A stretch of DNA of 64,000 bases from Desulfatiglandales bacterium. GTDB lineage: Bacteria; Desulfobacterota; DSM-4660; Desulfatiglandales; Desulfatiglandaceae. Positions within the stretch are counted from its first letter, which is position 1. Each line of letters opens with the position of its first letter. A program made the position numbers and the translations under genes. Positions 27,224 to 43,631 of this stretch are shown here, piece after piece. The notes below the pieces were generated by a model. The model did not search any database. It was given only the letters and a program-made list of their open reading frames with translations, and was not told the origin of the DNA. The stretch is taken from NCBI GenBank assembly GCA_963662465.1, contig OY759599.1:768001-832000 (forward strand), read 5' to 3'.

Positions 27224-28321
27224 TCAATCACTATCCGCAAGTTCCTTAGCAACCGCTTTGATGGTTTCCTCAATTTCCAGAAATGCATCCACCACATCCG
27301 GGTCGAAATGAGTGCCGCGCCCTTCGCTGATAATGGCCACGGCCTTTTCATGGGTGAACGGGGGTTTATAAACCCGTTTGCAGATGAGGGCGTCATACAC
27401 GTCCGCCACCGCCATGATCCGCCCGGAAAGGGGAATTTCCTCTCCTTTCAACCCTTGTGGATACCCGGAACCGTCCCATTTTTCCTGGTGGGTACGGGCG
27501 ATGTCCCTGGCGTGGGAGAGAAAGGAGGGCCGGATTTCCGCATCAAACAATTCCTCCGCCTTCAGAAGGGCCTGGTATCCCAACTCACAGTGGGTCTTCA
27601 TGGTGGCGAATTCTTCATCGGTGAGCTTGCCCGGCTTGTGCAAAACGGCATCGGGAACACCCACCTTGCCGATGTCGTGCAATGGCGCGGACTTGTAGAG
27701 CAGCTCCACTGTCTTTTTGTCCAGAACCTGCCCATGCTTTGGATGGTCCGCCATTTTTTGGGCCAGAGCCTGCACGTAACGCTGGGTTCGCAGGATATGC
27801 CCGCCGGTTTCATTGTCCCGGGTCTCCGCAAGGGATGCAAGGCTGTGAATGGTGATATCCTGGGTGACCGCCAGGTCCCGGGTACGCTCCGCCACTTTGA
27901 TTTCCAGAATTTCGTTCTGCATCTCCAGTTCACGGCCGGCCAGAACCAGGGAGAGGTGGGTCTTCACCCGGGCCTGCACCTCGGTAATTTCAAAGGGTTT
28001 GGTGATGTAATCGACGGCGCCCATCTGAAACCCCCTGGTCTTGTTTTCGATTTCCGTCAGCGCCGTCAGAAAGATGATGGGGATTTTGGCATAGCGTTCA
28101 TCTGCTTTTAGCGTTTGGCAGACTTCATAGCCGTCCATCTCCGGCATCATGATATCCAGCAGAATCAAATCCGGCGGTTCTTCCGCCACGGTCTCAACGG
28201 CTTCCCGGCCGTCCATGGCCACCGAGACATCATAGAGTTCGCCCAGGGCATCCACCAGAATATCCACATTGGCTTCCGTATCGTCCACCACCAGCACGGT
28301 GCAATCCGACAATTCTTTCAT
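27224..28321 (-). CDS. Response regulator REC + HD-GYP cyclic-di-nucleotide phosphodiesterase (RpfG-like)
   Basis: VVDD/LLDIMMP/KPF receiver; RDNETGGH, LHDIGK, QEKWDGSGYP, ADVYDAL and RVYK. Confidence 0.92.
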   Translation of the reverse strand: MKELSDCTVLVVDDTEANVDILVDALGELYDVSVAMDGREAVETVAEEPPDLILLDIMMPEMDGYEVCQTLKADERYAKIPIIFLTALTEIENKTRGFQMGAVDYITKPFEITEVQARVKTHLSLVLAGRELEMQNEILEIKVAERTRDLAVTQDITIHSLASLAETRDNETGGHILRTQRYVQALAQKMADHPKHGQVLDKKTVELLYKSAPLHDIGKVGVPDAVLHKPGKLTDEEFATMKTHCELGYQALLKAEELFDAEIRPSFLSHARDIARTHQEKWDGSGYPQGLKGEEIPLSGRIMAVADVYDALICKRVYKPPFTHEKAVAIISEGRGTHFDPDVVDAFLEIEETIKAVAKELADSD

Positions 28322-28395
28322 TGAACTTCACCTGTCCTTTCACTTTATTTTTCAAGTCGGCCGTCAGAAGCAAAGCCTCTTAAAAGCCGGAACCA

Positions 28396-29556
28396 TCAGG
28401 CAGAGGCAAAAACCTGAATGGTTTCCTCGCGAAACTCCGTTTTAGAGGAGTTATGAAGGATTTCAAAAAGAAACGGGTTGATTTTGGTACCCGCCTCTAT
28501 CAGCCGTATGCCATTGCTCGTGAAGACATCCGCGGCAATCACCATCCCAACGGTCAGGTCTTTTGGATAAAGTTTTCTGACAGCCATGTGGGCAGGTTCC
28601 GGTTCGCTCTCAACAATCCGGGAAAACATTTCCACCAGTTTGGGGCCGTACTCTTTTTCACCGGTTTTCAGCTCGGCCATTGCCGCGGATGGGGTTTTTC
28701 CGCTGTAGGTCAACTTCTCATACTCCAGAACCAGCTTTAGAATCCGACTTCCAATGTGAATCATGCGCTGTGCCTGATCATCCCCCTGGAACCCGGTTTC
28801 TTTTTGGAGTTCCTGCTGGCGTGCGATGATCTCTGCCACCTCTGTTAACCTTGGGATTTTGCGAATCAGTTCATACCCTATCTGAGGGTGCCGATTGTAG
28901 GTTTCCTTCTCCTCCACCAAAACCTTCTCTCCCCGGAAAATTTTCTCGATGGTTTCAGGCGGTACGATAACACAACCGATCTGGCTCAACATGGCGGCCA
29001 TTCGAATCTGCCAGAAGTCCGTTAGTTTGAAGGCTGCCATCACCTTGCTGACATGGCGTTTCAGCCGGGATGTTCGGCTGAATGCCGTGGGATTGGCAAC
29101 GGAAAGAATTTCCGTGAGAACCTCGATGGCGCCCCCCAGCGTTTTTACCACCAGATCGCGAAGTTCAAGCTCCGCCAGGCGCAGTTTCAGGTGGGTTTTT
29201 ACACGGGCGTTGACTTCCGCAATTTCAAAGGGCTTGGTGATATAATCCACCGCTCCTAACTGGAAACCCTTGGTCTTGTTGCTAATTTCCGTTAGAGCTG
29301 TCAGAAAAATGATGGGGATGTTGGCGTAGCGTTCATTGCCCTTTAATCTTTGGCACACCTCATACCCATCCATTTCGGGCATCATGATGTCCAATAAAAT
29401 CAGGTCCGGTGGTTCTTCCGCCACGGCTTCAAGGGCCGCCACGCCATCCATGGCCACCGACACATCATACAGCTCCCCCAGTGCATCCACCAGGATGTCC
29501 ACATTGGCTTCCGTATCGTCCACCACGAGTACGGTGCAATCCGATAGTTCCTTCAT
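28396..29556 (-). CDS. Response regulator REC + degenerate HD-GYP-like domain
   Basis: Intact REC; the HD dyad appears as SQ (LSQIGC) and GYP is absent. Confidence 0.8.
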   Translation of the reverse strand: MKELSDCTVLVVDDTEANVDILVDALGELYDVSVAMDGVAALEAVAEEPPDLILLDIMMPEMDGYEVCQRLKGNERYANIPIIFLTALTEISNKTKGFQLGAVDYITKPFEIAEVNARVKTHLKLRLAELELRDLVVKTLGGAIEVLTEILSVANPTAFSRTSRLKRHVSKVMAAFKLTDFWQIRMAAMLSQIGCVIVPPETIEKIFRGEKVLVEEKETYNRHPQIGYELIRKIPRLTEVAEIIARQQELQKETGFQGDDQAQRMIHIGSRILKLVLEYEKLTYSGKTPSAAMAELKTGEKEYGPKLVEMFSRIVESEPEPAHMAVRKLYPKDLTVGMVIAADVFTSNGIRLIEAGTKINPFLFEILHNSSKTEFREETIQVFASA

Positions 29557-29565
29557 TAGACTCAC

Positions 29566-32439
29566 CTATCCTTTCAGTTTGTTTTGCAGGTCTTCCAGAA
29601 GGGGTAAAGCCTCCTTGAATTTGTATTTATTGATCAACCGCTCCAGATCGGCCATTTCAATGCTCACGGCCGCCGGCCAGGGAGCCTTCTTCAACTCCGC
29701 CATGGCTTCCTTGCAGGGTTTCGGTTTTCGAGTTTTTAAATGGGGGATCATTTCTTCCAGTGCGGCCAAAAAAATTTTCGGATCAGCTTCTTCCGCACCA
29801 GTTTTGACGATTTCAACCTGTTTCGGTTCATCCCCCAGGATTCCCAGAGCCTCTACAACATCTCTTAGGACACCGCCAAAATTGGAAATCTTCTCTTCAT
29901 AGGTTTCCCGCTCTCCCTGTTTGATGGCGGACTCCAAAGCCGCACCGGCGTCCTGAAGGGGGCCCGCCCCCACGTTACCGGCCACCCCTTTGATGCTGTG
30001 GGCCAGACGTTCCGCCTCATCGGCCTTTTCCGATTGCAACAGGCCCCTTATTTCCTCATCCGTCTTGGCGTAATCGTCGCGAAGTTTCATAAGGATGTTG
30101 CGATAGAGTTTCTCATTACCCCCCACGCGCATAAGCCCTTCTTCCACATTAATTCCCTCAATGGATTGGGGAAGTTGATCCTTGGGTGGTGCAGGAGGGG
30201 CTGATGGGGCAGGTGCTGTTTCGAGGGGTTCTACCCTATCCGATTTGGGTTCAAATCCCCTCACCCCCGGCTGTATCCACTGGCCCAGGCAGGAGAAAAG
30301 CTGTTTTACGTCAATGGGTTTGGCCACATGGTCGTTCATGCCGGCTTCAATTGCTTTTTCCTTGTCACCGGCCATGGCGTTGGCGGTCATGGCGATGATG
30401 GGCATGTCGTCAAAACGCTTATCTTTGCGGATTTCGAGGGAGGCCGTGTATCCATCCATCACCGGCATCTGGATGTCCATGAGCACGGCCTGGTAATTGC
30501 CCGTCTGCACCGCATCCACCGCCTGCCGGCCATCTCCCACTGTGGTGACCTTAAGACCCGCCCCCCCCAGAATCTCCTGGGCCACCTGTTGATTGATCTC
30601 GTTGTCTTCCACCAGGAGCACCTGAGCGCCCTTGATATGATCCACCCCTTCGGGGTCAACACCCGGTCCCCGCCGTTTTTGTCCGGATCCGCTGCCTTTA
30701 CCAAAGGCGGCCATGGCGGCATCCAACAGCATTGAAGGGGCTACCGGTTTGATCAGAAACCCATCCAGACCGATCCGGTCCGCCTGGTTCATGATCTCTT
30801 CACGACCGTAGGCGGTCACCAGAATGATTTTGGGTATCTTGTTGAGGTCAGGATGATTCTTTATTTTTTCGGAAGCCGTTAGCCCATCCATACCCGGCAT
30901 CTGCCAATCCATGAAGATGAGATCAAAGGGATTGTCCGGGTCCGCCTTTTCCACCTCCGCCAGTCCTTTTAGTCCATCCGTGGCCAGGGTCACCTCAAAA
31001 GACATGGAGGTAAGCATATCTTCCAGTATTTCACGGCTGGTATCGTTATCGTCCACCACCAGCACCTTGAGGTTTTTGAGATCGGGGTCAGGCTGTAGTA
31101 TTCTCTCTTTTTGAGCCTCACCAATACCTAAAACCGCCGTAAAGATAAATTCACTGCCCACCCCCGGTTCGCTCTCCACCCAGATCTCGCCGCCCATCAT
31201 CTCCACCAGCCGCTTGCTGATGGTCAACCCCAGGCCGGTTCCACCGTATTTTCGGGTGGTGGAGGCATCCGCCTGACTGAAGGCCTGAAAGAGTTTTCCC
31301 CGCTGTTCTTCGGTAAGCCCGATGCCCGTATCCCGAACCCCGAACCGCACCTTTACATGATCTGAGGGCACCTGATCATCCATCGTCTCCATCACTGCGG
31401 CTGAAATGACAATTTCACCGGTTTCCGTAAACTTCACGGCATTATTGGATAGATTCACCAGGACCTGGCTCAGGCGCAGGGGGTCTCCCTGAAGGTCATT
31501 GGGCAGTTCCGGATCCACTTTCATCAGCAGCTCCAACCCTTTTTCCTGGGACTTGACACTCACCAGAGTGGACACACTGTCCAGGGTCTTGTCCAGGCTG
31601 AAATCGATGATCTCCATGTCCATCTTACCGGCCTCGATCTTGCTGAAATCGAGGATGTCGTTGATGATGCCGAGAAGCGCCTGAGCACTGGAGTGGATTT
31701 TAACCAGATAATCGACCTGCTTGGGATCCAGATCGGTCTTTAGCGCCAAGTGACTCATGCCCATAATGGCGTTCATGGGGGTACGGATCTCGTGGCTCAT
31801 GTTGGCCAGGAAATCACTCTTGGCCTTGGTGGCTTCCTCGGCTTTCTGCTTTTCCTCATCCAGGTCCTGCATCATGTTGAGCATGGCGCGCCTGGCTTCG
31901 GCCAACTCCTCAAGCTGCTCCTGAAGCGCCTCGGAAGCCTCTTCGGCGGAATCCCTGGCCGCCTCGATCTCCTCGGTGGAATTTTTCAAGGCTTCATTTT
32001 TCTCCTGCATCTCACGCAGCAATTCCCCCCTGGACGCTTTGGACAGATTTTTCCGCACGGTTTCGAGGAAATGCTCCGAAGGGCTGAAGCCTGGATTGGG
32101 CAAATATTTGAAAACAAGAACCTTTGATGGCGAACCTTCCCCGTTTCCCTCATGAATAACATCGAAAAAGGGCGCACCGTGGGATGCAATGGCTGTGTTT
32201 CCACCGTATGAGAATCTTATGGTCAAACCGCTCTGCCCATTACGGTCTTCAAGACCGATGGCAACATCCACATCAAAGGCATTACGAACGTCGTTTCTCA
32301 AAAGCTCGGAAAAAGCCGCCACCAGCCTTGTGGCATCCATGTCATCATATTCCAGTGTTTCGGCCAGCCTGAAGATTTTGCGCCTGGCATCAGAAAACGT
32401 TTCGGCATTTTTTACGGAAATATTACCCAATTCAATCAT
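29566..32439 (-). CDS. Hybrid histidine kinase (RsbT-like input, HisKA, HATPase, REC, REC, Hpt)
   Basis: [28 protein letters not shown], two receivers and Hpt [13 protein letters not shown] 32439 overlaps the rsbX-like stop. Confidence 0.92.
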
Positions 32440-33023
32440 AGCCCATACCTCAATACAATACACGATGCATCATCGCTGTCCTTACCCAACCGGTCCATCA
32501 GATCCGCCGCTATTTTCCGCGCTGAACCCTTCAGAAGGTCCGGGTAGAAAATCGGATCAAAGTGTTCCTTTATCCCGTCGGAGTTCAAAATCAGGATATC
32601 CCCGGAAGACACTTTTGCCCGTTGTTTTTTGGGCGTGGGCATTCTGTACCCGAGAACACCGTCCCGGGAAACAAAGGTGACGGGGGACGGTCCGTAAAGC
32701 CGCGCCGTAATATTTCCCACGCCCACAAATTCCATTTCGCCGTTCACCAGGTTCAAATGGCAGAGGGCGGCAACGGCCCCTCGGGTCCCCTTCAAACAGG
32801 CATGCAATCCGTTCATCAATTCCTCCAGATCGGAAAGATGGCTTTCCTCAAGATAGCGCTCCCCGATTTCCGCCACCTGGTGGGCATTTTTGCCATGGCC
32901 CAGCACATCCATGAGGGCTAAAAAGCATTGGTCATCGGATACCCGGATGACCCCCGCATCGCCGCATTCGTCCTCCGGACCGGTGAGTGAGCGCTTCAAC
33001 AAATGGGTGTCAACCTTAAGCAT
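32436..33023 (-). CDS. rsbX: RsbX-like PP2C/SpoIIE phosphatase
   Basis: ECGD, DVLGHG, GTRGAV, GVGNI, SDGI and DDASC; directly after rsbT. Confidence 0.8.
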
Positions 33024-33438
33024 TCCGTCTCCATTTTCTGGCAACAATCCGCGTGCCGGCGCCTGGTTTCGATTGAATGTCAAATTCGTCCATAATCCTT
33101 TTTATGCTGGAGAGCCCCAGACCCAGACCGTGGCCCTTGCTGACCCCTTCTTCCATGGCCCCTTGGATGTCCTCGATGCCGGGTCCCTGGTCCTCCACGG
33201 TAAACTCAAAGCCCACACGGTCCTCATCTTTAACAGCCCTGAGCCTGACCCTTCCTTTTTCGGCATACCGAATCACGTTCGTGGAGGCTTCGGACGCGGC
33301 CGTGGCGATCAGGTATTGCTGGTTCTCGTCAAATCCCATTTGGGCGGTGAGGTGCCTGACGGCGTAGACCACCCGGGCATGGTCCGACAACTCAACCAGA
33401 TCGATGATCCTTTCTTCAATAATGCCGTTATTCTCCAA
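33016..33438 (-). CDS. rsbT: RsbT-like Ser/Thr switch kinase
   Basis: ATAASEASTNVIRYA, EDQGPGI, GLGLGL..IKRIMDEF and GTRIVARKW. Confidence 0.88.
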   Translation of the reverse strand: MENNGIIEERIIDLVELSDHARVVYAVRHLTAQMGFDENQQYLIATAASEASTNVIRYAEKGRVRLRAVKDEDRVGFEFTVEDQGPGIEDIQGAMEEGVSKGHGLGLGLSSIKRIMDEFDIQSKPGAGTRIVARKWRRNA

Positions 33439-33465
33439 CTTAAAATATCTCCCGGGTTACCCGAT

Positions 33466-33897
33466 TCACGGGATGACGCCTGATTTCGACTCCACGGGCC
33501 CAAACCGCTTCAGGGCACGATTCCTTAAAAACGCGAACCCGTCATCCATGCTGATGGCCGTCGGAATGTTCCCGAGATCTAGCCCCAGATCCACCGCCGC
33601 GGACGCAACACCCGGCTGAAAGCCCACAAACACAATATCGGCGCCCAGCATGGATACCATTTTTGCGGTATTCGTCAGAACGGTAAAGCTGTAAGCATCA
33701 ACGATCCGAAGAACGGAAACATCAAACAGGACCCCCTTGGCAGCGGTTTCGTTTACTTTTCGAAGGACCGCTTTTTGAAGCCCCACGGCGTAATGATCAT
33801 CCAGTTCCGCATTGACGGGCACCACCAGAAAGCCGCCCACCGTGTGCATGCCCAATGCGGAAAAATTTTCAACATCTTCCATAGTTATCTTCTCCAT
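33466..33897 (-). CDS. rsbS: RsbS-like STAS protein
   Basis: Single STAS domain (ELDD, GVLFDVS, LGA...VGFQPGVA...DLGL) between rsbR and rsbT. Confidence 0.85.
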   Translation of the reverse strand: MEKITMEDVENFSALGMHTVGGFLVVPVNAELDDHYAVGLQKAVLRKVNETAAKGVLFDVSVLRIVDAYSFTVLTNTAKMVSMLGADIVFVGFQPGVASAAVDLGLDLGNIPTAISMDDGFAFLRNRALKRFGPVESKSGVIP

Positions 33898-33925
33898 CTC
33901 GGTATAATTTACAGATAAGCTACCT

Positions 33926-34735
33926 TTATTTCGTTTGGACCACCTCCAGCTTCAATATGGCAAATGCATCGGCCAGGGAATCCTGAAGGTTTGAATTGGT
34001 GGTCACGTCTCCCAGTTCAATGCCCAGTTGAACCAGGGTCTCGGCCACGGCGGGGGATATGCCGGAAACAATGCACCGGCACCCCATGAGCCTCGTGGCT
34101 TTGGCGATTTTAATAAGATGGTTGGCCACCGCCGTGTCAACCGTGGCCACCCCCGCAATATCCAGAATAATGACTTTGGCCAGGGTTTCCGTTATCTTCT
34201 TCAACATGGTGTGCATCATCTGTTGAGCACGCAGGGAATCCACCACCCCCACCACGGGAAGAATGATGACCCGGTCCCACAGCTTTATGACCGGGGTCGA
34301 TATCTCCATGATGGTGCGGCTCTGTTCCTGAAGTTTCCGCTCCTGTTGAACCCGGTTGGTGATATCCAGGATGTATTCCAGCCCGCCGATGATATTCCCC
34401 GCTTTGTCCTTTAAGGCCGCGGCGGTGTATTCAATGGGGATCGACCTCCCACCGATTTTTGCCTCATTGCGAACGGTACACGTTTCAGTGCCTCCCATAA
34501 CTTGTTTCATTCGGCATTCCGGTGTCCGGCAGTGGAGCGAATCGAAAACCTCGTAACAATGACTCCCTTTGATTTCCTCCCAACTTTTTCCGGAGAGCTT
34601 TAAACCCGCATCATTCATGAAAATGAGATTCAGATCGAGATCCACCGCCATAATCGGCGTGGGAAGCTGATCCAGAATCTGGATTGCGAGATCGTTGTTG
34701 ATCTGCACACTGCTGCCGTTAATTTTTTGGTTCAT
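33926..34735 (-). CDS. rsbR: RsbR-like stressosome sensor (PAS + STAS)
   Basis: N-terminal PAS; EISTPVIKLW, GVVDSLRA, LDIAGVATVDTAVANHL and GISPAVA. Confidence 0.88.
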   Translation of the reverse strand: MNQKINGSSVQINNDLAIQILDQLPTPIMAVDLDLNLIFMNDAGLKLSGKSWEEIKGSHCYEVFDSLHCRTPECRMKQVMGGTETCTVRNEAKIGGRSIPIEYTAAALKDKAGNIIGGLEYILDITNRVQQERKLQEQSRTIMEISTPVIKLWDRVIILPVVGVVDSLRAQQMMHTMLKKITETLAKVIILDIAGVATVDTAVANHLIKIAKATRLMGCRCIVSGISPAVAETLVQLGIELGDVTTNSNLQDSLADAFAILKLEVVQTK

Positions 34736-34770
34736 GGATTGCCTCCAGTTTTTGGGTGTTGAATATACGG

Positions 34771-37700
34771 TTATTGAACAATCTCGTATTTTTCTTCCCG
34801 GCCGAGTTTTTCCAGAAGTTGGTTGACTTCTTCCTTCAGACCGATCATTTTTATCTCCCTGCCCACCACCAGTCGGTTGAACTGTTCCAGCTCTTCCAGC
34901 CTCTCCTTCAGTTCCTGTTCGGCCTTCTTCAGTTCCGAGATATCGATAAAGCTTTCCAGAAGATGTGTTTTCCCACTCAGTTTCACCCGCGTCACGGTTT
35001 TGAGTATCGGTATTTCCTGACCCGCGGCGGTAAGAAGAACCCGTTCGGCATTTTCAATTTCCTGCTCACTGTCCAGTACGGGACAGTCATTCACTGCCTT
35101 GGGACAAACAAACTCATGACAAATGTGGCCGATGATTTCCGTGCCGGGCAACCCGATCATTTGGGCCGCCAAGGGATTTACGTCAACGATGGTACGGTTT
35201 TCGGGATCAATGATGATCACACCGGTGTTGATGGCATTTAAAATCGTCTGGACACGCTGTTCGCTCTCTTTAACCGCCTTTTCCGCCTGCTTCTTTTCCG
35301 TTTCGTCTTTTGAAAAAACCGCAATAACCCAGCGATTCTCCAATTGCGTCAAAACAATTGAAAGCATAACATTCAGAATACGCCCGTCTTTTGTTTTGTG
35401 GAGGCCTTCGGTCTCAACGTGGGAATGGGTCTGAAGGACCTCCATCAAGCCGGTAAATTTTTCTTCATTGAATTCCATATCGATCTGGGGCACATGCATG
35501 CTCATGAGCTCCTCCCGGGTGTAACCCAGTGAACTGCACGCCGCTTCATTGGCATAGATAAACATACCGGTCTCGGGATCCACCCAGAAGATCGTGAGAG
35601 CCGCTTTGTCCACCGTGGTCTGAGTGAACCGCAGGCGATCTTCCGATTGTTTGCGGTCGCTAATATCCGTGACCATGGCAAAAGCGCCGATCCTTTCATT
35701 GTTTTCGTCATAGAGCGGCGAAACATTGTAAAGACAATTGACCTGGCTACCGTCGGGCCTGGAAAGGGCGATTTCATAGGCACTGGTAATGCCCTGTTTT
35801 CGAAGCTCAATCTGTTCCAGAAATATTTTCTTGTTCTCTTCGTCCACAAAATCAAAGATGGTTTTGCCGATCACCTCATCTTTCTCCCTCCCCATAATAT
35901 GGCACATGGCGGGGTTCTGATCGACAATTTCCTGACTGGCATTGACCAATTGGAAACCTTCAGCGGCTGTTTCCAGAATCGTTTTGAGCTTTTTCTCACT
36001 TTCTTTCATGGCATCTTCCGCAATTTTGCGGTCAGTAAAGTCGCGCAGGCTTTCGATGGCGCCTACCGGTTTCCCGCTGGTGTCATAAAGAATGGCCGCA
36101 ATACCGGAAAGGTAAGTGCCACCATCGCCCATGTGGGGATGGAAAGATTCCGACACAAGACAATTCCCTTCCTTCTTTACGCTCAGGTATTTTTTCCCCA
36201 GTTCCTCATCCCATTGTTTTACCAAATCCACCAGAATCGGGCGGCGGTCACCATAGAATGGCAAGGCGTATTCATAATCCCCTTTACCCACGATGTTTCC
36301 CTTCTTTACGCCGGTAAGTTTCTCCATGGCGCGATTCCAAAACTGCACTTTGCCCTCAACATCGATTGCAAGAATGGGATCCGGCAGAAAGTCAATGAGA
36401 TCGGCCATGCGTTGTTCAGAATCTTTTATGGCCTCCTCAGCCTTCTTGCGCTCGGTGATGTCTCGCACCGTGCCAACCGCAAACCATTCTTCATCTACCT
36501 GGAAGGATGACAGCGTTACCTCAACCGGGAATTCATCGCCCTTTCGGTTGCGGGCGTTAATCTCGGTGGTGGTTCCCAGGACAGGGCCTTCCCCATTTTC
36601 GGCAAAATGTTTCAGCCCGGCGTAGATTTTCTCATGGTACACTTCGGGCGCGGCCATCTGGTGAAAATCCATCCCCATGGCCTCGGCTTCGGTGTAGCCG
36701 AAAAGCTTCTCCGCCGCGGGATTCCAGAACAGCACTTTCCCCTGTCCATCGATCATCACCAGTGCATCTTCCGCAGCTTGGCTCATGGCCTTGATTTTGC
36801 GCTCGCTTCTGATATGATCCAGTTCCGCCAGTTTCCGGCTTGTAATATCCAGTATTAATCCGTTATAAATGAGATCCCCTTCAGCGTTACGACTGGGAGA
36901 GGCATTGAGGCGGATCCATTTGACAGCGCCTTCTTTGGAAATTATACGGCCCACATGATTCATGTCCGCTTCAGCCAAGAGGTCCGTTTGGACCTCTTTC
37001 TTGACCCTCTCAAAATCCTCCGGATGCCATGGAAGGCGCTCTTTCCCCCTCATCACCTGCTCCACCGGCATTCCGAAAAAGGCTTCGGCCTTTGGACTCA
37101 GGTACAGGTATTCGGGCCTGCCGTCGGCGTCAAACCGGATCTGAATGATGGCCCCTGGTGTGGTTGCGGCAATGGTCTGGAAACGCTCCTCGGCACGCTT
37201 GCGTTGGACCATCTCCCTGGCCATGCGCCGGTTCCAGATGATGATGATGGTCAAAATCAATCCGATAACCATGGCAACGGCAATCCCCATTTTGATCAAG
37301 AAAGCCCAGTCGGTGCGTTGGGCGAAGCGCACGTTAATCCAGCGGTTGGCGATATTTCGCTTCTCTTCTTCAGGTATGGAATTGAGGGCCTTGTCAAGGA
37401 TGGTTGCCAGTTGTGGCCAGTCCTTGCGCACGCCAAAACGCAGGCTTGAACTGTAACCTGTCGAGGCGGCCACCTTGAGATCCGCAAGACCCAATTTGCT
37501 AATGGCATATACAATCGAAGCCGAGTTATCCACATAGGCCGCGGCTTGTCCTTCGGCTACCGCCTTAAGGCCCTGTTCGATATCGTCTACCAATACCAGC
37601 TTCATTTCAGGGAAATCCTGTTCCAGCATCTCCTGCACAAAATACCCTTTGACCACCGCCACTTGGGCGTCTTTCAAACTTTTCATTTCAGCAATGAACG

Positions 37701-39537
37701 GTGCGTCTTTCCGGGTAACGGCAACGGTCTGAAAATCCAGATAGGGGCGTGTGAACTGAAGAAATTCCGCGCGCTTCGGCGATTTGGCGACACAAGGCAG
37801 AACATCCAGTTCCCCGGCTTTCACGGCATCCATGACGCCATGCCAACTCAAACTCTTCACCGGCGTCATCTCCACATTCAGTTTCTCACTCATGAGGAAC
37901 ACGTAGCTGGAGGAAATCCCTTCGTACTCCCCTCCGGCACTGACGCCCTCAAAAGGCATGAAATTGGGATCCACGCCCAGGCGGATATGAGGATGTTTTT
38001 TGAGCCACTCCTTTTCCTCGAAGGTCAGCACCATGGGGCGGGCTTTTCCGGAATACTGGCGCAAGTCGGGATTTGAAACCCAGCGCCCTTCGACATCCCG
38101 TATTTCCTTTTCCGTAATTTCGTCAAAACCACTGTTTATGGATTTAAGTCGGAACCCATCTTCCTTTAAAACAGCGGCAAAAAGATTTCGAATCGGGGTG
38201 GTTTCCCTGGAAACCCGAATCTCCCCCTGCAATCCCATGTCTTCAATAGCCCGCTGCAATGTAATCCCAACATCATATATGGCGATGACATCACCGTCCT
38301 GCAGGCCGGTAAGGAGTTCTGGGTATCCCTCATAAGGGATGCGAACAATTTCCGGATACTGCTCACGAAGCTGACTCTCCTCCCCCGACCCGGCAATCAC
38401 ACCGACGCGAGCGCCGGAGAGTTCAGCAAGCATCATGGGTTTCCTGCTTGTTTTAAAGGCCAGGCTGTCCTGCACGTCAAAGATGGGGACTGAGAAGGAA
38501 AGAAACGTTTCGCGTTTCGGGGTTTTGTACAGACCCGAGTGAAAATCGGCTCTTCCATCTTTGACCATCTGAAGTGTTTCTTCCCAGTCTCCGAAAACAA
38601 ACTCGATTTTACGAAAGTTCTTTGAGGACCACAAACGCCAGAGATCCACCAGGATTCCCGCAGCCTTGCCCGAAGGGGTCAGCATGGTAAAGGGCGGGTA
38701 GTACCGATCGCAGGCAATGGTTAATACCCCTTTGGGTTTGATTATTTTTGAACCGATCCAGCGCCGTTCGATCTGCACCTTTTCTTCCGGGGAGATCTTG
38801 TCAAAACATGACTTTATGACAGGCGGCAAAACCGTATCGCCTTTTTTTACCGCGGCCTGAAAGGCATTGGTATAAAGAGGCTTGTCCGAAAAATAACGAA
38901 AGTTTGAAAGGAGTTGTATTTTCTTGAGGAAGTAAAGGCCGACGGGGGTATCTATGACGAATACCCGGATTTCCCCCTTTTTAACGGCCTTGAACAGATC
39001 TCCATTGTTGACATATTCGGCGAGAGCGGCCCCGGGCAGATTAGTGCGCAGATAGTCCACTGCAAAATCTCCCTTGATGACGCCGATGCGAAACCCCAGC
39101 AGATCTTTCAGGGTTTTAATGCCATAAATGTCTTTGTGGAAAAAGAAATGGGTATCCGCTTTGATGAGGGGGGCAACATAGTCCAGGTAGGTTGCTCTTT
39201 GCTCCGAATAGAAACAGCCGCCCTGAACGTCCACTTTCCCCTCTTTGGTGAGCTTCAGGGTTTCACCAAAAGGCGCCAGGACGAAGTTGATCTTGATACC
39301 GCTTTTTTGGGACCACAACTGCCAGAGATCCACCAGCCACCCGTCAGCGACCCCTTTCGCGTCTCGGAAATAGAACGGGGCAGTGTCCTGTGCCACCGCC
39401 ACAGTGATTTCTTTGATATCTTGAGAGCCTTCCTTTGCCGCAGCCACAATCGGCATGCCTAAAACAGTCAGAAAAAATCCCAGACAAAACAACCAGGACC
39501 CGAAAACTCCGGCAATGCTCCTTTTAAAACACGGCAT
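34771..39537 (-). CDS. Membrane sensor with 3 periplasmic PBPb domains and 6 PAS domains, no catalytic output domain
   Basis: Signal/TM, three PBP repeats (APF, YPPF, FMPF), TM ending WNRR, six PAS-PAC units ending DIT/DFT/DIS/DET, then a short C-terminal helix. No H-box, GGDEF, EAL or MCP motif seen. Confidence 0.85.
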   Translation of the reverse strand: MPCFKRSIAGVFGSWLFCLGFFLTVLGMPIVAAAKEGSQDIKEITVAVAQDTAPFYFRDAKGVADGWLVDLWQLWSQKSGIKINFVLAPFGETLKLTKEGKVDVQGGCFYSEQRATYLDYVAPLIKADTHFFFHKDIYGIKTLKDLLGFRIGVIKGDFAVDYLRTNLPGAALAEYVNNGDLFKAVKKGEIRVFVIDTPVGLYFLKKIQLLSNFRYFSDKPLYTNAFQAAVKKGDTVLPPVIKSCFDKISPEEKVQIERRWIGSKIIKPKGVLTIACDRYYPPFTMLTPSGKAAGILVDLWRLWSSKNFRKIEFVFGDWEETLQMVKDGRADFHSGLYKTPKRETFLSFSVPIFDVQDSLAFKTSRKPMMLAELSGARVGVIAGSGEESQLREQYPEIVRIPYEGYPELLTGLQDGDVIAIYDVGITLQRAIEDMGLQGEIRVSRETTPIRNLFAAVLKEDGFRLKSINSGFDEITEKEIRDVEGRWVSNPDLRQYSGKARPMVLTFEEKEWLKKHPHIRLGVDPNFMPFEGVSAGGEYEGISSSYVFLMSEKLNVEMTPVKSLSWHGVMDAVKAGELDVLPCVAKSPKRAEFLQFTRPYLDFQTVAVTRKDAPFIAEMKSLKDAQVAVVKGYFVQEMLEQDFPEMKLVLVDDIEQGLKAVAEGQAAAYVDNSASIVYAISKLGLADLKVAASTGYSSSLRFGVRKDWPQLATILDKALNSIPEEEKRNIANRWINVRFAQRTDWAFLIKMGIAVAMVIGLILTIIIIWNRRMAREMVQRKRAEERFQTIAATTPGAIIQIRFDADGRPEYLYLSPKAEAFFGMPVEQVMRGKERLPWHPEDFERVKKEVQTDLLAEADMNHVGRIISKEGAVKWIRLNASPSRNAEGDLIYNGLILDITSRKLAELDHIRSERKIKAMSQAAEDALVMIDGQGKVLFWNPAAEKLFGYTEAEAMGMDFHQMAAPEVYHEKIYAGLKHFAENGEGPVLGTTTEINARNRKGDEFPVEVTLSSFQVDEEWFAVGTVRDITERKKAEEAIKDSEQRMADLIDFLPDPILAIDVEGKVQFWNRAMEKLTGVKKGNIVGKGDYEYALPFYGDRRPILVDLVKQWDEELGKKYLSVKKEGNCLVSESFHPHMGDGGTYLSGIAAILYDTSGKPVGAIESLRDFTDRKIAEDAMKESEKKLKTILETAAEGFQLVNASQEIVDQNPAMCHIMGREKDEVIGKTIFDFVDEENKKIFLEQIELRKQGITSAYEIALSRPDGSQVNCLYNVSPLYDENNERIGAFAMVTDISDRKQSEDRLRFTQTTVDKAALTIFWVDPETGMFIYANEAACSSLGYTREELMSMHVPQIDMEFNEEKFTGLMEVLQTHSHVETEGLHKTKDGRILNVMLSIVLTQLENRWVIAVFSKDETEKKQAEKAVKESEQRVQTILNAINTGVIIIDPENRTIVDVNPLAAQMIGLPGTEIIGHICHEFVCPKAVNDCPVLDSEQEIENAERVLLTAAGQEIPILKTVTRVKLSGKTHLLESFIDISELKKAEQELKERLEELEQFNRLVVGREIKMIGLKEEVNQLLEKLGREEKYEIVQ

Positions 39538-39620
39538 TTGCGTTACCCCTTGTAATTTCAATGTTTTTTTCTAAATATCCTCTGGGAAACATGAACTTTA
39601 AAACATTCTCATTCCCCTGT

Positions 39621-42413
39621 TTATTCCTTTAATTTTTTCTGAAGACCTTCCACCAGGGGCAGAGCCTCTTTAAATTTGTATTTGTTGATGAACCTTTCCA
39701 GATCTGCCATCTCCACGCCTACCGCCGCCGGCCAGGGCACCTTTTTGATCTCCGCCATGGCCTCCTTGCACGGTTTCGGCTTACGGGTTTTCAGATGGGG
39801 AATCAATTCTTCCAGGGCGGCTGCAAGCGCTTCAGGATCGACTTCCCCCCCAGCCTTTTGGGCCATATCGGCCGGTTTGGGTTCCTCGCCCAAAACCCCG
39901 AGCGCTGCCACAACATCTTTCAACACACCTCCGAAAGCGGAAATCCGTTCATCATCGGTATCGGAAAGCCCTGCTTTGATGGCGGACTCCAGCGCCGCTG
40001 CCGCCGCCTGTAACGGCCCCGCCCCCACGTTGCCGGCCACCCCTTTGATGCTGTGGGCCAGACGTTCCGCTGCTTCCCCTTTTTCGGCCTTCAGCAGATC
40101 TTTGAGTTCCTGTTCGGTATCGGCATAGTCATCCCGAAGCTTTATGAGCAGTTTGCGGTAAAGCTTTTTATTTCCGCCCACGCGCATAACCCCTTCCTTG
40201 ATATTGATGCCGTTTACGACATCCGGAAGATGATCTTCAGCCACGGCGGCGGAAGGTTCAACAGCCGGTAAAGGGATATCAGTCCTGGGTTCGAATCCCC
40301 GCACACCCGGTTTGATCCACTGGGCCAGGCAGGAGAACAGCTGGTTCAGATCGATGGGTTTGGCTACGTGGTCGTTCATGCCGGCATCAACCGCCTTTTC
40401 ACGGTCTCCCGCCATGGCGTTGGCCGTCATGGCGATGATGGGAATGGGGATTGCGGATTGCGGATTGCGGATTTTCTCTTCCCCTTCCCATTTGCGGATT
40501 TCGCCGGTAGCCGTGTACCCGTCCATGACCGGCATCTGAATATCCATTAAGACCGCATGGTAGTTGTTGTCCGCCTGCACCGCTTCCAAAGCTTGCTTTC
40601 CGTTACTAACGGTAGTGACCCTGAGGCCTGACCCACCAAGAATTTCCTCGGCCACCTGCTGGTTGATTTCGTTGTCTTCCGCCAGCAGCACGTGGGCGCC
40701 TCTGATTTTTTCCGCTCCTTCCGGTTCACTCGAATGTTTCCTGCCGCGTCTTTTGGAAGCATCCAGTTTGCCAAAGGCGGCCATGGTGGCGTCCAGCAGC
40801 GTCGAAGGGGTGAGCGGTTTGATGAGGAAACCGTCCAGTCCCATTTGATCGGCCCGGGTCATGATCTCTTCCCGGCCAAAGGCGGTCACCATGATGATTT
40901 TGGGAATCTTGGCAAGGCCTGCATGGTTCCTGATTTTTTCAGACACCGTAAACCCGTCCATTCCGGGCATTTTCCAATCCATAAGCACCAGTTCAAAGGG
41001 ATCTTCCTTATCTGCTTTTTCCAGTTCCCTGAGCCCTTCTTCCCCACCGGGGACAAGGGTCGCTCTAAAGGACATGGCAGCCAGCATTCCTTCCAGAATG
41101 TCGCGGCTGGTTTGGTTGTCGTCCACCACCAGCACTTTGAGGTTCCTGAGATCCGGGTCGGGCACGAGAGCGGGCTTTTCATCCCCTTTTCCAAGGCCGA
41201 AAAGAGCGGTGAAGATGAATTCGCTGCCCACTCCGGGTTCGCTTTCCACCCAGATCTCTCCCCCCATCATCTCCACCAGCCGCTTGCTGATGGTGAGCCC
41301 CAGACCGGTTCCGCCGTATTTCCGGGTGGTGGAGGCATCGGCCTGGCTGAAGGCCTGAAACAGTTTGCCCCGCTGTTCCTCGGTAAGTCCTATCCCCGTA
41401 TCCCGGACGCCGAACCGCACCCTTACCTGATCTGGGGGCATCTGATCCTTGGTTTTCTCCTCCAGGGTGGCGGAGATGACGATCTCTCCTTTTTCCGTGA
41501 ATTTGACGGCATTGTTACTGAGGTTCACCAGCACCTGGCCCAGGCGAAGGGGGTCCCCAAGAAGGTTATTGGGGAGTTTCCGGTCCACCTTCAACAGCAG
41601 TTGCAGTTCCTTTTCCTGGGACTTCACACCCACCAGGTTGGCCACATTGTCCAGGGCATCATCCAGCTTGAAATTGATGGTTTCCATGTCCATCTTGCCC
41701 GCTTCGATCTTGCTGAAATCTAAGATGTCGTTGATGATGCCCAAGAGCGCCTTGGCGCTGGACTGTATTTTCACCAGGTAGTCTTGCTGCTTGGGGTTCA
41801 ACTCCGTTTTTAGGGCCAGGTGGCTCATGCCGATGACGGCGTTCATGGGGGTCCGGATCTCGTGGCTCATGTTGGCCAGAAAATCGCTTTTGGCCTTGGT
41901 GGCCTCTTCGGCTTTCTGTTTCTCCTCGTCCAGGTCCTGCATCATGTTCAGCATGGCACGCCTCGCATCCGCCAACTTTTCAATCTGAGCCTGCATGGAA
42001 TCCTCGGACTCCCTGCTTTTGGCGAAAGCGGCTTCCAACTGCTCGGCCATACTGTTAAAGGCCTCTGAAAAATCCCCCATGAAATCGACCTTGTGACTGA
42101 AATCCCCTTTGGCGATCTGCTGAGTGGTCCAGGTCAGGTGGCGCAGACTTCCCTGGAGGTTTTTCAGGTTACCCATCAGGGCGCTGTTGCTTCGAGGCGG
42201 TTGGTATTCGACATCGCCGCCGGACAGTGCCTGGGCCAGATCGGCAGTGGCGGCGTAATCCGTGAGGAATTTGTTGATGTAGCCAACCGCCTGCCGAATC
42301 TCGTTGTCAGGAAAATCGTCGGGCAAAAGGATAGGGCCGGGCTTCTTACCTTTCATGATCAGATAGAAGACCTCACTGATCTTGTCAATGATCTCTTCCT
42401 TGACTTCCAGCAT
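39621..42413 (-). CDS. Cytoplasmic hybrid histidine kinase (HAMP, HisKA, HATPase, REC, REC, Hpt)
   Basis: IAKGDFS...[22 protein letters not shown], two receivers and [11 protein letters not shown]pt; no TM helix; starts 4 bp after the V4R gene. Confidence 0.92.
40448..40473. repeat. Heptamer tandem repeat (GGATTGC)x3.7 inside a kinase receiver domain
   Basis: GGATTGC GGATTGC GGATTGC GGATT, encoding IRNPQSAI on the minus strand. Confidence 0.8.
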
Positions 42414-42417
42414 GTAT

Positions 42418-42945
42418 TTATGCCCTCGGCTTGATGTCAAAACGGCAGACGCGGTCACCGGTGCACCAGCAGTCGATCTCCTTCACATCAAACTCTTTGC
42501 CCGTAAATTCCAGGAACAGGCCGTTGATAAACCCCTCATCGTAAGTACAGATGCTTTCATCAGTGATGGGCAGCCCGGAACAATCCAGATCCTCCGCCAC
42601 CGTCAGGATAAAGTGCATGTTCTCCATGTCGGCTTTTTCAACGCGCAGAATACCGATGCTCAAATCGGACAACAGCCTTTGTACCTCTTCAACAAATGCA
42701 TTGAAGTCAGACTTCTGCGTCACCAGATTCTTGAAAAACTGGCGGCCCGCGGACTGCCCGGCTTCGTAATAAATGCGGTCGGCGGCCTCGGGGCCATAAT
42801 GCTTGATCAGTACGTCGCGCAGGGTAAATTGCATGAGGCGGTAGACCGCCACGCTCATGGTGTTCCCCAGGTTGGGCCGACCTTCGGCGATATCGCCCAG
42901 CATACTCCAATCAAATTGCAGTTCATCCCGCTCTTCCTTAAACAT
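42418..42945 (-). CDS. Stand-alone V4R-domain protein
   Basis: GRPNLG, IGILRVE, EDLDCSG, CTYDEG and [22 protein letters not shown]. Confidence 0.88.
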
Positions 42946-43224: not shown

Positions 43225-43512
43225 TTATCCTTTCAATTTGCGTTGATCGAAAATCATTGTAGATCCTTTTTCATTCAGGAATTCCGCGATCTCCAGTTCC
43301 AGACCCCTCAATAAATCTTCATATTCCGTTCTGCGAACAGGCGCCTCTTCCAGAGTGGATTGATTCCATTTTGTGAGTGCCTCGAAACAGATCTGGTAAT
43401 CATTGCAGAGGGTGTGAAACCCGTCATCGCTCTTGAGCAGGGAATGAATTGTTTTCTTTCGAAAGGGAAAGCGTTTAATCACATGAAAAAGACTCGATTT
43501 TATGACCGACAT
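43225..43512 (-). CDS. Small helical hypothetical protein (F..LCxDY..C..AL..W)
   Basis: 95-aa ORF from ATG 43512, divergent from the TPR regulator. Confidence 0.6.
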   Translation of the reverse strand: MSVIKSSLFHVIKRFPFRKKTIHSLLKSDDGFHTLCNDYQICFEALTKWNQSTLEEAPVRRTEYEDLLRGLELEIAEFLNEKGSTMIFDQRKLKG

Positions 43513-43631
43513 GGTGACCCCCATAAAAAGACGGTTGTTAAGGTTTCTTGAAAGTGTATAATGGGCACGCTTTAAAACAACTAATTTAGGGTATATTAGG
43601 TAATGTGCGCGGATGATCCGGAAGGACCGAA

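Follow-up and report, generated by a model that had tools for sequence, protein, structure and literature searches.

A membrane sensor without an output domain and two hybrid kinases carry candidate halves of a helical junction in a Desulfatiglandales operon

Genes and features of the operon

The window, a stretch of 64,000 nucleotides, comes from contig OY759599.1 (positions 768,001 to 832,000) of a Desulfatiglandales bacterium. Its reverse strand encodes a large sensor that ends in a conserved tail (tail A) and two hybrid kinases that share a conserved helix (helix B), together with V4R, stressosome and response regulator genes. The features are listed by their positions in the window.

42418..42945, minus strand: V4R-domain protein of 175 aa (Pfam V4R, E 5e-15), directly upstream of kinase 1
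39621..42413, minus strand: hybrid kinase 1 (P0002), composed of an N-terminal domain, a HAMP-like stretch, helix B, HisKA, HATPase_c, REC, REC and Hpt
41889..41999, minus strand: helix B of kinase 1, a 37-residue profile (genome profile search, E 2.6e-20) with a 15-residue core at 41922-41966
34771..39537, minus strand: output-less sensor of 1588 aa, with three periplasmic SBP_bac_3 domains, TM, six PAS domains and tail A
34774..34935, minus strand: tail A, the last 54 residues of the sensor (tail profile, E 2e-29)
33926..34735, minus strand: RsbR-like PAS-STAS protein (Pfam), 35 nt downstream of the sensor
33466..33897, minus strand: RsbS-like STAS protein (Pfam STAS)
33016..33438, minus strand: RsbT-like HATPase_c_2 protein (Pfam; NCBIfam anti-sigma F factor type, below cutoff)
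32436..33083, minus strand: PP2C/SpoIIE phosphatase in the RsbX position (Pfam SpoIIE, E 1.3e-8)
29566..32463, minus strand: hybrid kinase 2 (P0003), composed of an unassigned N-terminal domain, a coiled coil, helix B, HisKA, HATPase_c, REC, REC and Hpt
31819..31929, minus strand: helix B of kinase 2 (profile search and hmmsearch), with a 15-residue core at 31852-31896
27224..29565, minus strand: two REC-HD-GYP response regulators (28396-29565 and 27224-28321; Pfam Response_reg and HD_5)

The open reading frame of the sensor (34771-39561) gives 1596 aa if read from the TTG at 39561; the database entry of the sensor (P0004) has 1588 aa, in agreement with the ATG at 39537. Pfam places three SBP_bac_3 and six PAS domains on the protein and finds neither an enzymatic or output domain nor a STAS domain in it. 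Hydropathy indicates two membrane segments, at about residues 16-42 and 751-778. The C-terminus reads ...ELEQFNRLVVGREIKMIGLKEEVNQLLEKLGREEKYEIVQ-stop, with the stop codon at 34771-34773 directly behind the tail. The original prediction of an output-less sensor with three periplasmic binding domains, a transmembrane part, six PAS domains and a terminal tail is thus borne out. All 22 relatives found for the sensor terminate in tail A, one of them with a 20-residue extension, and, like the sensor itself, they are free of kinase and other enzymatic domains; the input part is not joined to kinase core, receiver and Hpt in one polypeptide.

The frame of kinase 1 is open to 42458; its likely start is the ATG at 42413, and orthologues begin at the equivalent methionine. 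Kinase 2 likely starts at Met 9 (nt 32439). Neither kinase has a membrane segment (maximum 19-aa hydropathy of 1.64 and 1.43, respectively). Helix B lies ahead of the H-box in both, just before HisKA, and is separate from the HAMP-like Pfam match of kinase 1 (residues 102-143, below cutoff). Two soluble kinases with an identical segment before HisKA had been predicted, and the cores lie within 3 nt of the coordinates given then. The segment is present in both as claimed, but its identity carries no information alone because the kinases are paralogues, identical in 581 of 827 residues (70%) from helix B onward, with homology that begins at the flank of helix B (nt 466/541, 78% nt identity).

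The 8.16-Mb host genome contains one tail A (unfiltered hmmsearch, E 5e-22; next best 0.87) and two copies of helix B (E 6e-20 and 7e-19; next best 3.1), all within this single operon. Helix B of kinase 2 lies 2845 nt downstream of tail A on the same strand. The spacing is 2834 nt in locus L104 and 3082 nt in locus L108, in both cases to a helix-B kinase, and the RsbR orthologue of L104 (61% identical) likewise directly follows a tail-bearing sensor. Helix B of kinase 1 lies on the same strand 7225 nt upstream of tail A, a rare arrangement, as a helix B within 5 kb upstream was found in 4 of 32 same-strand pairs of the phylum sample described below. The order of the genes makes kinase 2 the canonical partner of the sensor. 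In locus L076, an orthologue of the V4R protein (60% identical) is located between a tail-bearing sensor upstream and a helix-B kinase downstream. Both local layouts therefore recur: sensor with tail A, V4R protein and B-kinase, and sensor with tail A, RsbR and further genes, and a B-kinase about 2.8-3.1 kb on. The stressosome module of RsbR, RsbS, RsbT and RsbX is complete in the cluster (32436-34735; four genes by Pfam), and the two REC-HD-GYP regulators are likely the end of the relay.

Tail A and helix B are coupled in neighbouring genes and in single chains

Tail A is a widespread module that is nearly always C-terminal. Its profile retrieves 10,341 cluster representatives (E<=1e-3), of which 1,631 also pass E<=1e-10, and it has no match in Pfam, NCBIfam or the PDB. 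Residues R26, E27, K34, N38, L40 and Y50 (tail numbering) are invariant in the profile. Past a near-invariant glycine, the tail has a conserved tyrosine and a mostly hydrophobic end, which could be the start of a connector. Among the fetched top matches that fit the motif expression (123 of P0045-P0190), the motif ends 15-39 residues from the C-terminus in 120, with a modal distance of 16. The tail is preceded by PAS chains behind SBP, Cache, CHASE, GAF, PocR or REC domains, and in REC-PAS-tail proteins it is the sole 'output'. For 73 of the 103 tail A matches of at least 200 aa, the five best Pfam hits are input or receiver domains only. A search of 168 tail carriers detected a kinase core in none (phmmer, best E 0.41; positive control 7e-130), nor an H-box or GGDEF in any of them. 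Sensor orthologues that run into a kinase, which the original prediction had named as a sign against itself, were thus seen neither here nor among the 22 relatives. The spread of both motifs over deltaproteobacteria, archaea and CPR bacteria, as given in the original prediction, proved real in a broad sample of many phyla.

Helix B is followed by HisKA, PAS or GGDEF in partner proteins. It starts anywhere from residue 33 to residue 1109, just before the output domain, and is therefore not simply a free end or a free docking head.

Tail A and helix B lie next to each other far more often than expected by chance. The same 401 genomes (phylum sample) were searched for both motifs, and contained 98 tail A sites in 63 genomes and 53 helix B sites in 47 genomes. 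Both motifs occur in 34 genomes, only A in 29, only B in 13 and neither in 325 (helix B at E<=0.01), which corresponds to an odds ratio of 29 across genomes that are related and not independent. Helix B shares a contig with a tail A at 32 of its 53 sites, always on the same strand, without a single opposite-strand pair, and at 26 of the 53 it lies 89-3563 nt downstream of the tail. Seen from the tail, a helix B follows within 5 kb at 31 of 98 sites and does not at 67. In the broad sample, which includes CPR bacteria and archaea, 63 terminal A genes are followed by 3 kb or more of sequence. A same-strand helix B was found within 4 kb of the tail gene in 21 of these 63, none was detectable in 42, and none lay on the opposite strand (0/63). 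The loci used to train the iterated helix B model were also those in which positions were later counted, with strand and side unused in training. Co-occurrence of the motifs had been named beforehand as a test, and in both samples they co-occur and adjoin.

The stop of the sensor gene and the start of the partner gene often overlap or nearly touch (-23, -4, -4 and +10 nt). Tandem arrays have two to three tail A genes, followed by one helix B gene. In a second class of neighbourhood, formed by seven loci, a CheR-like gene follows the tail gene, and in six of them the next gene encodes a membrane kinase without any B-like motif; helix B is thus not the sole possible partner of tail A. Among 42 non-redundant neighbour pairs, Asn38 of A is accompanied by an asparagine in B in 33 of 33, and where A lacks Asn38, B has tyrosine or histidine in five of nine.

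Both motifs also occur within single chains, where A comes first and is separated by a loop or an inserted PocR sensor domain from B, which the next domain follows. Such chains were unforeseen in the original prediction. Protein P0050 contains A (338-387), a 25-residue loop and B (412-437), and in most A-B forms a PocR domain or a chain break takes the place of the short loop. Inspected proteins with an internal A and PocR have the B-like motif AA[LM][SN]LAEDA after PocR in nine of nine cases, and the two inspected with an N-terminal PocR and no A lack it. Among 130 PocR proteins, an upstream A is accompanied by B in 77 of 79 cases, against 9 of 40 where PocR is N-terminal and A is absent. In 80 metagenome loci, B occurs in 40 of 40 that have A and in 0 of 18 that lack it. 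Half of the B-carrying PocR proteins (44/88) end within 40 residues after B, so an output domain behind B is not obligatory. The PocR forms also have a separate ...RT.EL stretch after B. AlphaFold2 output for a one-chain form places helices at 22-64 and 244-311, and gives helix positions only, with no contacts. The presence of A and B in single chains is the best argument for one structural unit. The counts are of related sequences and not of events, and the one-chain coupling and the asparagine covariation could each go back to a single clade, or a handful, in which the pair was passed on as a block.

Candidate working of the junction and alternative explanations

We propose, with a probability of about 0.65, that sensor and kinases form a split sensor-kinase system, with the sensor as its detached input half, and that A and B make up a single helical junction, widespread and unnamed, of which each provides one half. 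A periplasmic ligand would bind to the solute-binding domains of the sensor, and the signal would be carried by the transmembrane helix, and then by the chain of PAS domains, to dimeric A helices. These may pack on the B helices of a kinase dimer, and form a HAMP-like four-helix junction with a cut connector. The packing would alter the balance of kinase and phosphatase activities, and phosphate would pass along REC, REC and Hpt until it reaches the two REC-HD-GYP regulators. In each kinase, the module that precedes B may stand where PocR stands in the single-chain proteins, and each kinase would then merge two inputs. In kinase 1 this module would be the HAMP-like domain together with the adjacent V4R protein, and in kinase 2 the N-terminal domain, putatively fed by the stressosome. 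The anatomy, the spread of A and B and their coupling are observed here; that A and B touch, how the bundle is built, which way the effect goes and that both kinases are addressed is inferred.

The sensor could be taken for a truncated kinase gene, a pseudogene or the product of an assembly break, since its set of domains matches what EvgS/BvgS-type kinases have at the N-terminus; residues 475-788 of the sensor align with positions 256-565 of the NCBIfam EvgS model, far below cutoff. The shared tail end of the 22 kinase-free relatives and the fixed distance from motif to stop in most fetched top matches make this extremely improbable. The truncated-kinase reading is refuted by the tails of the relatives, the spread of the tail, the position of the motif and the absent kinase cores. 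It is also rather improbable that the sensor serves as an extracytoplasmic input arm of the stressosome, with its tail touching RsbR or RsbT and not the kinases. The start of rsbR 35 nt past the sensor stop would suit such an arm, as would the sensor-then-RsbR order in L104 and L108, but the B-kinase is still present 2.8-3.1 kb on in both loci. RsbR-like proteins make up only 2 of the 76 listed downstream genes in the broad sample, RsbR has no B-like motif at E<=100 in a genome-wide scan, and the V4R-type layout occurs without stressosome genes.

We consider it unlikely, if less so, that the tail caps C-termini in general or serves as a handle for something other than helix B (for dimer stabilisation, for a CheR-like enzyme or for a different common factor), that helix B is just the signalling helix of one kinase lineage, and that their adjacency is due only to block inheritance of operons. 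The 42 tail genes without detectable B, the CheR-like loci with B-less kinases and the REC-PAS-tail proteins agree with this explanation, and kinship among the genomes inflates the statistics. However, the coupling holds while the surroundings vary, with A after SBP, Cache, CHASE, GAF, PocR or REC and B before HisKA, PAS or GGDEF. Order and strand are fixed, B after PocR in a single chain occurs essentially only with A upstream, and the one A and two B of the genome share one operon.

Relation to known systems and significance

BvgS/EvgS-type kinases combine solute-binding 'Venus flytrap' domains, TM, PAS, HisKA, HATPase, REC and Hpt in one chain, and the sensor and a kinase of this operon together have the same domain inventory. 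The sensor corresponds to the input part (periplasmic solute-binding domains, TM and PAS), and residues 171-553 and 196-575 of the kinases align with positions 693-1065 and 693-1062 of the NCBIfam EvgS model, far below cutoff. In contrast to BvgS and EvgS, the chain is interrupted here after the PAS region and before the phospho-acceptor domain, with a conserved helix on either side of the break (A or B), and one sensor faces two kinases.

A HAMP domain consists of two amphipathic helices and a connector, and forms a four-helix bundle in the dimer. A and B may resemble it as a two-helix relay between input and output; in P0050 they are arranged as A, loop and B. Unlike HAMP, however, neither has a match to the Pfam model (PF00672) at E<=10, the helices are longer, the connector can be a whole PocR domain or a chain break, and the bundle of A and B is our proposal. 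The S-helix, a coiled coil of about 40 residues between input and output, has a central ERT signature that is absent from tail A and helix B.

Stand-alone sensors such as H-NOX with HnoK and LuxP with LuxQ control a neighbouring kinase, and resemble the present sensor in being separate proteins encoded beside their kinase. Contact in these pairs is made via globular domains, and we know of no docking motif common to them, whereas A and B recur across phyla with many sensor and output domains. Chemoreceptors, several of which serve one CheA kinase through CheW, are comparable to the arrays of two to three tail genes before one B gene. No CheA or CheW is encoded in the loci inspected, and an A-B contact would differ in pairing one helix with another, at the input helix that belongs to the kinase itself.

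Split histidine kinases are reportedly cut inside the kinase core, whereas the cut proposed here falls between the sensor and the phospho-acceptor domain. Extracts of two papers describe such kinases as two-component kinase function distributed over two polypeptides (PMC3591291, PMC7656254). Extracts of two others describe Vibrio-type stressosome loci with two-component output, with a hybrid kinase and regulators behind the RsbR-S-T-X genes, as in this operon (PMC9237108, PMC10014275). Compared with the loci of those extracts, the present one adds a tail-bearing membrane sensor before rsbR and a second, V4R-linked paralogous kinase. No description of a pairing of tail A with helix B was found in the literature searched, and our results point to it as an undescribed way to plug separate sensors into kinases.

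More tentatively, at slightly less than even odds, A and B may form a universal non-covalent, HAMP-like plug and socket, from archaea and CPR bacteria to proteobacteria, that would wire any number of separate sensors (PAS, Cache, solute-binding, PocR or receiver) to a kinase, a cyclase or a further sensor module. Chains would then be assembled as by the docking domains of polyketide synthases, and in this operon one periplasmic receptor would drive two paralogous kinases, each with a second input (V4R or stressosome).

To our knowledge, thousands of output-less 'PAS domain S-box proteins' are annotated, and the signalling target of none of them can be stated. If the proposed junction exists, the link of a detached sensor to its kinase would be directly testable by a two-hybrid assay and a few point mutants, and the helices would provide a compact natural pair for joining sensors to kinases in engineered circuits. 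With the tail as plug and the pre-kinase helix as socket, the partners of output-less sensors would become predictable from sequence alone, and many-to-one sensor wiring would be readable in genomes.

The sensor, the two kinases and their gene row

The genome containing the window is a single contig of 8.16 Mb, in which the window spans C1:768001-832000. A tightly packed row of genes occupies positions 27224-42945 of the window on the minus strand.

Genes of the row, in order
42418-42945, minus strand: V4R protein, first in the row
39621-42413, minus strand: hybrid kinase 1 (N-terminal domain, HAMP-like stretch, HisKA, HATPase_c, REC, REC, Hpt)
34771-39537, minus strand: giant sensor, after kinase 1
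35 nt beyond the sensor, minus strand: RsbR-like PAS-STAS protein
after the RsbR-like gene, minus strand: RsbS-like STAS protein
after the RsbS-like gene, minus strand: RsbT-like HATPase_c_2 protein
after the RsbT-like gene, minus strand: PP2C/SpoIIE phosphatase
29566-32463, minus strand: hybrid kinase 2 (core the same as in kinase 1)
end of the row, minus strand: two REC-HD-GYP regulators

Three minus-strand ORFs upstream of the V4R gene (43225-43686, 43596-44240 and 44319-45242) have no Pfam match. They are overlapped in the 43225-45269 region by a plus-strand ORF of 545 aa with weak TPR matches below the cutoff.

The sensor is composed of three SBP_bac_3 stretches and six PAS stretches. Hydropathy places one hydrophobic segment at about residues 16-42 and another at about 751-778. 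Pfam detects no enzymatic domain in it. The end of the ORF and the Pfam content thus confirm the original prediction of an output-less sensor with a distinct C-terminal tail; we call the last 54 residues of the sensor tail A. Hydropathy identifies no hydrophobic segments in kinases 1 and 2. An identical 15-residue core of helix B, the segment just ahead of HisKA, precedes the H-box in both, within 3 nt of the predicted positions. The identical segments are present as predicted, but their identity is uninformative, because the two kinases are paralogues with 581 of 827 residues identical. The nucleotide homology of the kinase genes starts at nt 466 and 541, at the flank of helix B, which places helix B within the kinase unit that the two genes share by duplication. 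Ahead of helix B, the two kinases have different input modules. The N-terminal part of kinase 2 (about 140 aa; window 32016-32439, minus strand) has no Pfam match, and its first 141 residues give no BLASTP alignment to the RsbT-like protein at E≤100. The genome holds one tail A and two helices B, all within this operon, and gene order marks kinase 2 as the canonical partner of the sensor.

In relatives of the kinases, helix B follows the motif [AT]R[RK]AMLN[MIL][ML][EQ]DL and is kept behind three types of N-terminal module: HAMP-like, kinase-2 type, and PAS/GAF. Helix B is often located deep inside its protein. Homology between A and B was rejected, with an hhalign probability of 1.9%.

Spread and anatomy of tail A

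A word-based search that used the final 58 residues of the sensor identified 22 relatives, not counting the protein of the window itself. Each of the 22 ends in tail A, one of them with a 20-residue extension, and no kinase domain is recorded for any of them. A profile built from eight tails and searched against 1.84 billion representatives matched 10,341 proteins with a cutoff of E≤1e-3, of which 1,631 remain at E≤1e-10. From the best 150 of the 10,341 matches, 146 proteins not yet in the set were retrieved, and 123 fit the motif regex; the motif ends 15-39 residues from the C-terminus in 120 of the 123, most commonly at exactly 16. The domains of tail carriers are input or receiver domains only (PAS types, PocR, SBP_bac_3, GAF, CHASE, Cache, HAMP and REC, from Pfam top-five lists for 73 of the 103 matches of at least 200 aa), and four of the carriers examined have no Pfam match. 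In 168 tail carriers, phmmer detects no kinase core (best E 0.41, against 7e-130 for the control), and neither an H-box nor GGDEF is present. The sensor could have been a truncated kinase or a pseudogene; this was rejected, as all 22 relatives end in the tail instead of running on into a kinase, the distance from motif to stop is regular in the top matches, and kinase cores are found in 0 of the 168 carriers.

The consensus of tail A is ..RK.AE..L.....ELE.FN.L..GRE.RMIELK.EIN.LL..LG...KY.IV, with R26, E27, K34, N38, L40 and Y50 invariant in 23-24 diverse rows. No sequence match in Pfam, NCBIfam or the PDB covers the tail. The best PDB hit of the tail profile is a colicin coiled coil (E 0.4), and Pfam and NCBIfam searches with tail A and helix B alone at E≤10 return only sub-threshold coiled-coil noise. 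The parts of the literature available to us contain no description of either motif.

A broad multi-phylum sample of tail A loci, collected with a degenerate DNA pattern, comprises at least 121 stretches. Among the matches listed, the bacteria belong to Desulfobacterota, Bacteroidota, Ignavibacteriota, Nitrospirota, Chloroflexota, Planctomycetota, Omnitrophota and Cloacimonadota, together with Gammaproteobacteria and the CPR groups Saccharibacteria, Nomurabacteria and Nealsonbacteria; the archaea belong to Methanosarcinales, Methanobacteriota and Micrarchaeota.

Two variant forms were observed. Proteins P0087, P0090, P0093, P0098 and P0126 consist of a response-regulator receiver, PAS and the tail, which is their sole candidate output. 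A short-tail subtype, present at loci L053, L059, L060 and L046 (genomes G097, G060, G018 and G049), lacks Asn38 and the G...KY.IV end. The gene after it overlaps or begins within about 110 nt, and encodes a coiled coil, RRAMLY[IML][LM]ED with Tyr replacing Asn, and a PAS-like domain.

Tail A and helix B in one chain and in neighbouring genes

Where tail A is internal, an acidic linker and then a PocR domain come after it. A B-like AA[LM][SN]LAEDA comes after PocR in all nine inspected proteins with an internal A; two PocR proteins without A continue without a B-like motif. In protein P0050, A (338-387) and B (412-437) are joined by a 25-residue loop, and P0050 looks like its relative P0078 minus PocR. 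We examined 130 PocR proteins, 123 of which contain the core motif. B follows PocR in 77 of the 79 with A upstream, the two exceptions being a near-miss variant and a garbled sequence, and in 9 of the 40 with a PocR that is N-terminal in its record and no A. Half of the B-carrying PocR proteins (44/88) end within 40 residues past B, so that a chain can also terminate with helix B. P0193, P0195, P0202, P0212, P0215, P0221 and others have B near the C-terminal end; such proteins are typically Cache-GAF-A-PocR-B chains of about 800 aa.

A metagenome set of 80 loci, with 62 distinct PocR instances biased towards relatives of the PocR protein P0259 (81-96% identity in the best 25 loci), has B in 40 of 40 informative cases with A. 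B is found in none of 18 N-terminal PocR genes without A for which upstream DNA is present. Since these loci close to P0259 include no N-terminal PocR with B, the nine exceptions are probably shortened gene calls.

Both profiles were searched in the same 401 genomes of the phylum, A at E≤1e-4 (profile A2, 24 rows, row 21 with a one-letter error at its first position) and B at E≤0.01. Profile A2 is also the source of the HMM used for A in the scripted scans. A has 98 sites in 63 genomes, with none in the six other genomes of the family or the seven of the order, and B has 53 sites in 47 genomes. Both are present in 34 genomes, A only in 29, B only in 13 and neither in 325, giving an odds ratio of 29 for co-occurrence across related genomes that are not independent. 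For 32 of the 53 B sites there is an A site on the same contig, in every case encoded on the same strand; B is 89-3563 nt downstream of A at 26 of these sites, up to 5 kb upstream at four, and further upstream at two. Counted from the A side, 31 of 98 sites have B within 5 kb downstream and 67 do not. A and B lie within about 5 kb of each other in 28 of the 34 genomes with both, a count that, like those for one-chain coupling, is taken over related sequences.

Among the matches listed in the broad sample, only those terminal A genes were counted that are followed by 3 kb or more of DNA. A same-strand B occurs within 4 kb of 21 of these 63 genes, and an opposite-strand B within that distance of none; the other 42 are without a nearby B. 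In close pairs, the stop of A and the start of B are separated by -23, -4, -4 and +10 nt, and the domain after B is PAS, GGDEF or HisKA. Ala14 and Asp21 of helix B are invariant in 42 neighbour pairs, and Asn17 occurs in 37. Two or three A sensor genes precede one B gene in tandem arrays at L263 (G049:C8), L264 (G296:C43) and L266 (G222:C3). The order B, PAS, A within a single protein is found in P0073 and at L262 (G001:C7), in the middle module of its array. At the Saccharibacteria locus L099, a gene overlapping the stop of the tail gene by 8 nt encodes a B-like TKLAIINILEDY at the start of its protein. The B model missed this stretch, so the A-B pair count is a lower bound.

The arrangement of the window recurs elsewhere. 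Among the matches listed, seven loci of the broad sample have a sensor with A and then V4R, followed at about 1 kb by a B kinase of the kinase-1 type; the V4R protein of one of them, L076 from Dethiosulfatarculus, is 60% identical to that of the window. At loci L104 and L108, the sensor with A is followed by RsbR, further genes and a B kinase of the kinase-2 type, 2834 and 3082 nt away, respectively; the distance from A to helix B of kinase 2 in the window is 2845 nt. The RsbR protein of L104 is 61% identical to the RsbR-like protein of the window. In the window, a single sensor is positioned between both kinase types.

A putative split helical junction

The best reading of these sequence patterns is that A and B would be two halves of one helical junction, split here between the sensor and the kinases. 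We infer the contact of A with B, its geometry, the sign of its effect and the use of both kinases. An Asn-Asn covariation between A and B, counted over pairs of related sequences, is only a hint. In the AlphaFold2 model of P0210, a one-chain form of 315 aa (alignment of 71 rows; mean pLDDT 88.4, pTM 0.64), which gives helix extents and not contacts, A forms a single helix (22-64), a linker of low confidence comes next, and B is part of a long helix (244-311). In the PDB, Foldseek matches the PocR core only weakly, to GAF/PAS-like structures (best E 1.1e-3). A complex prediction with two copies each of kinase 1 residues 138-262 and the 54-residue tail gave ipSAE values of 0.02 and 0.01 with a separate alignment per chain; this counts neither for nor against binding.

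The nearest analogy is HAMP, to a split form of which the A/B junction may be likened. However, neither A nor B has a profile match and a bundle geometry is only presumed; therefore, we do not claim membership in the HAMP family. Published split histidine kinases are reportedly cut within the kinase core. 'Split histidine kinases' (PMC3591291, PMC7656254) and, in Vibrio, stressosomes with two-component outputs (PMC9237108, PMC10014275) are already known.

Among the matches listed, a CheR-like gene of about 275 aa with an FFR[DN]PLTF motif directly follows the tail sensor at seven loci from Bacteroidota, Chloroflexota and Ignavibacteriota (L073, L102, L123, L077, L129, L112 and L128). In six of the seven, the next gene encodes a membrane kinase of about 1000 aa without a B-like motif. 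This class may represent another type of partner; alternatively, the tail may be a substrate for methylation. A CheB/CheR-like fusion was observed at locus L070.

We hypothesize that in the A/B junction input would enter through A, and a second input would occupy the connector position, which PocR takes in the one-chain forms. In the window, the N-terminal modules of the kinases, linked to V4R or to the stressosome, would take this position, and B would pass the merged signal into the next domain.
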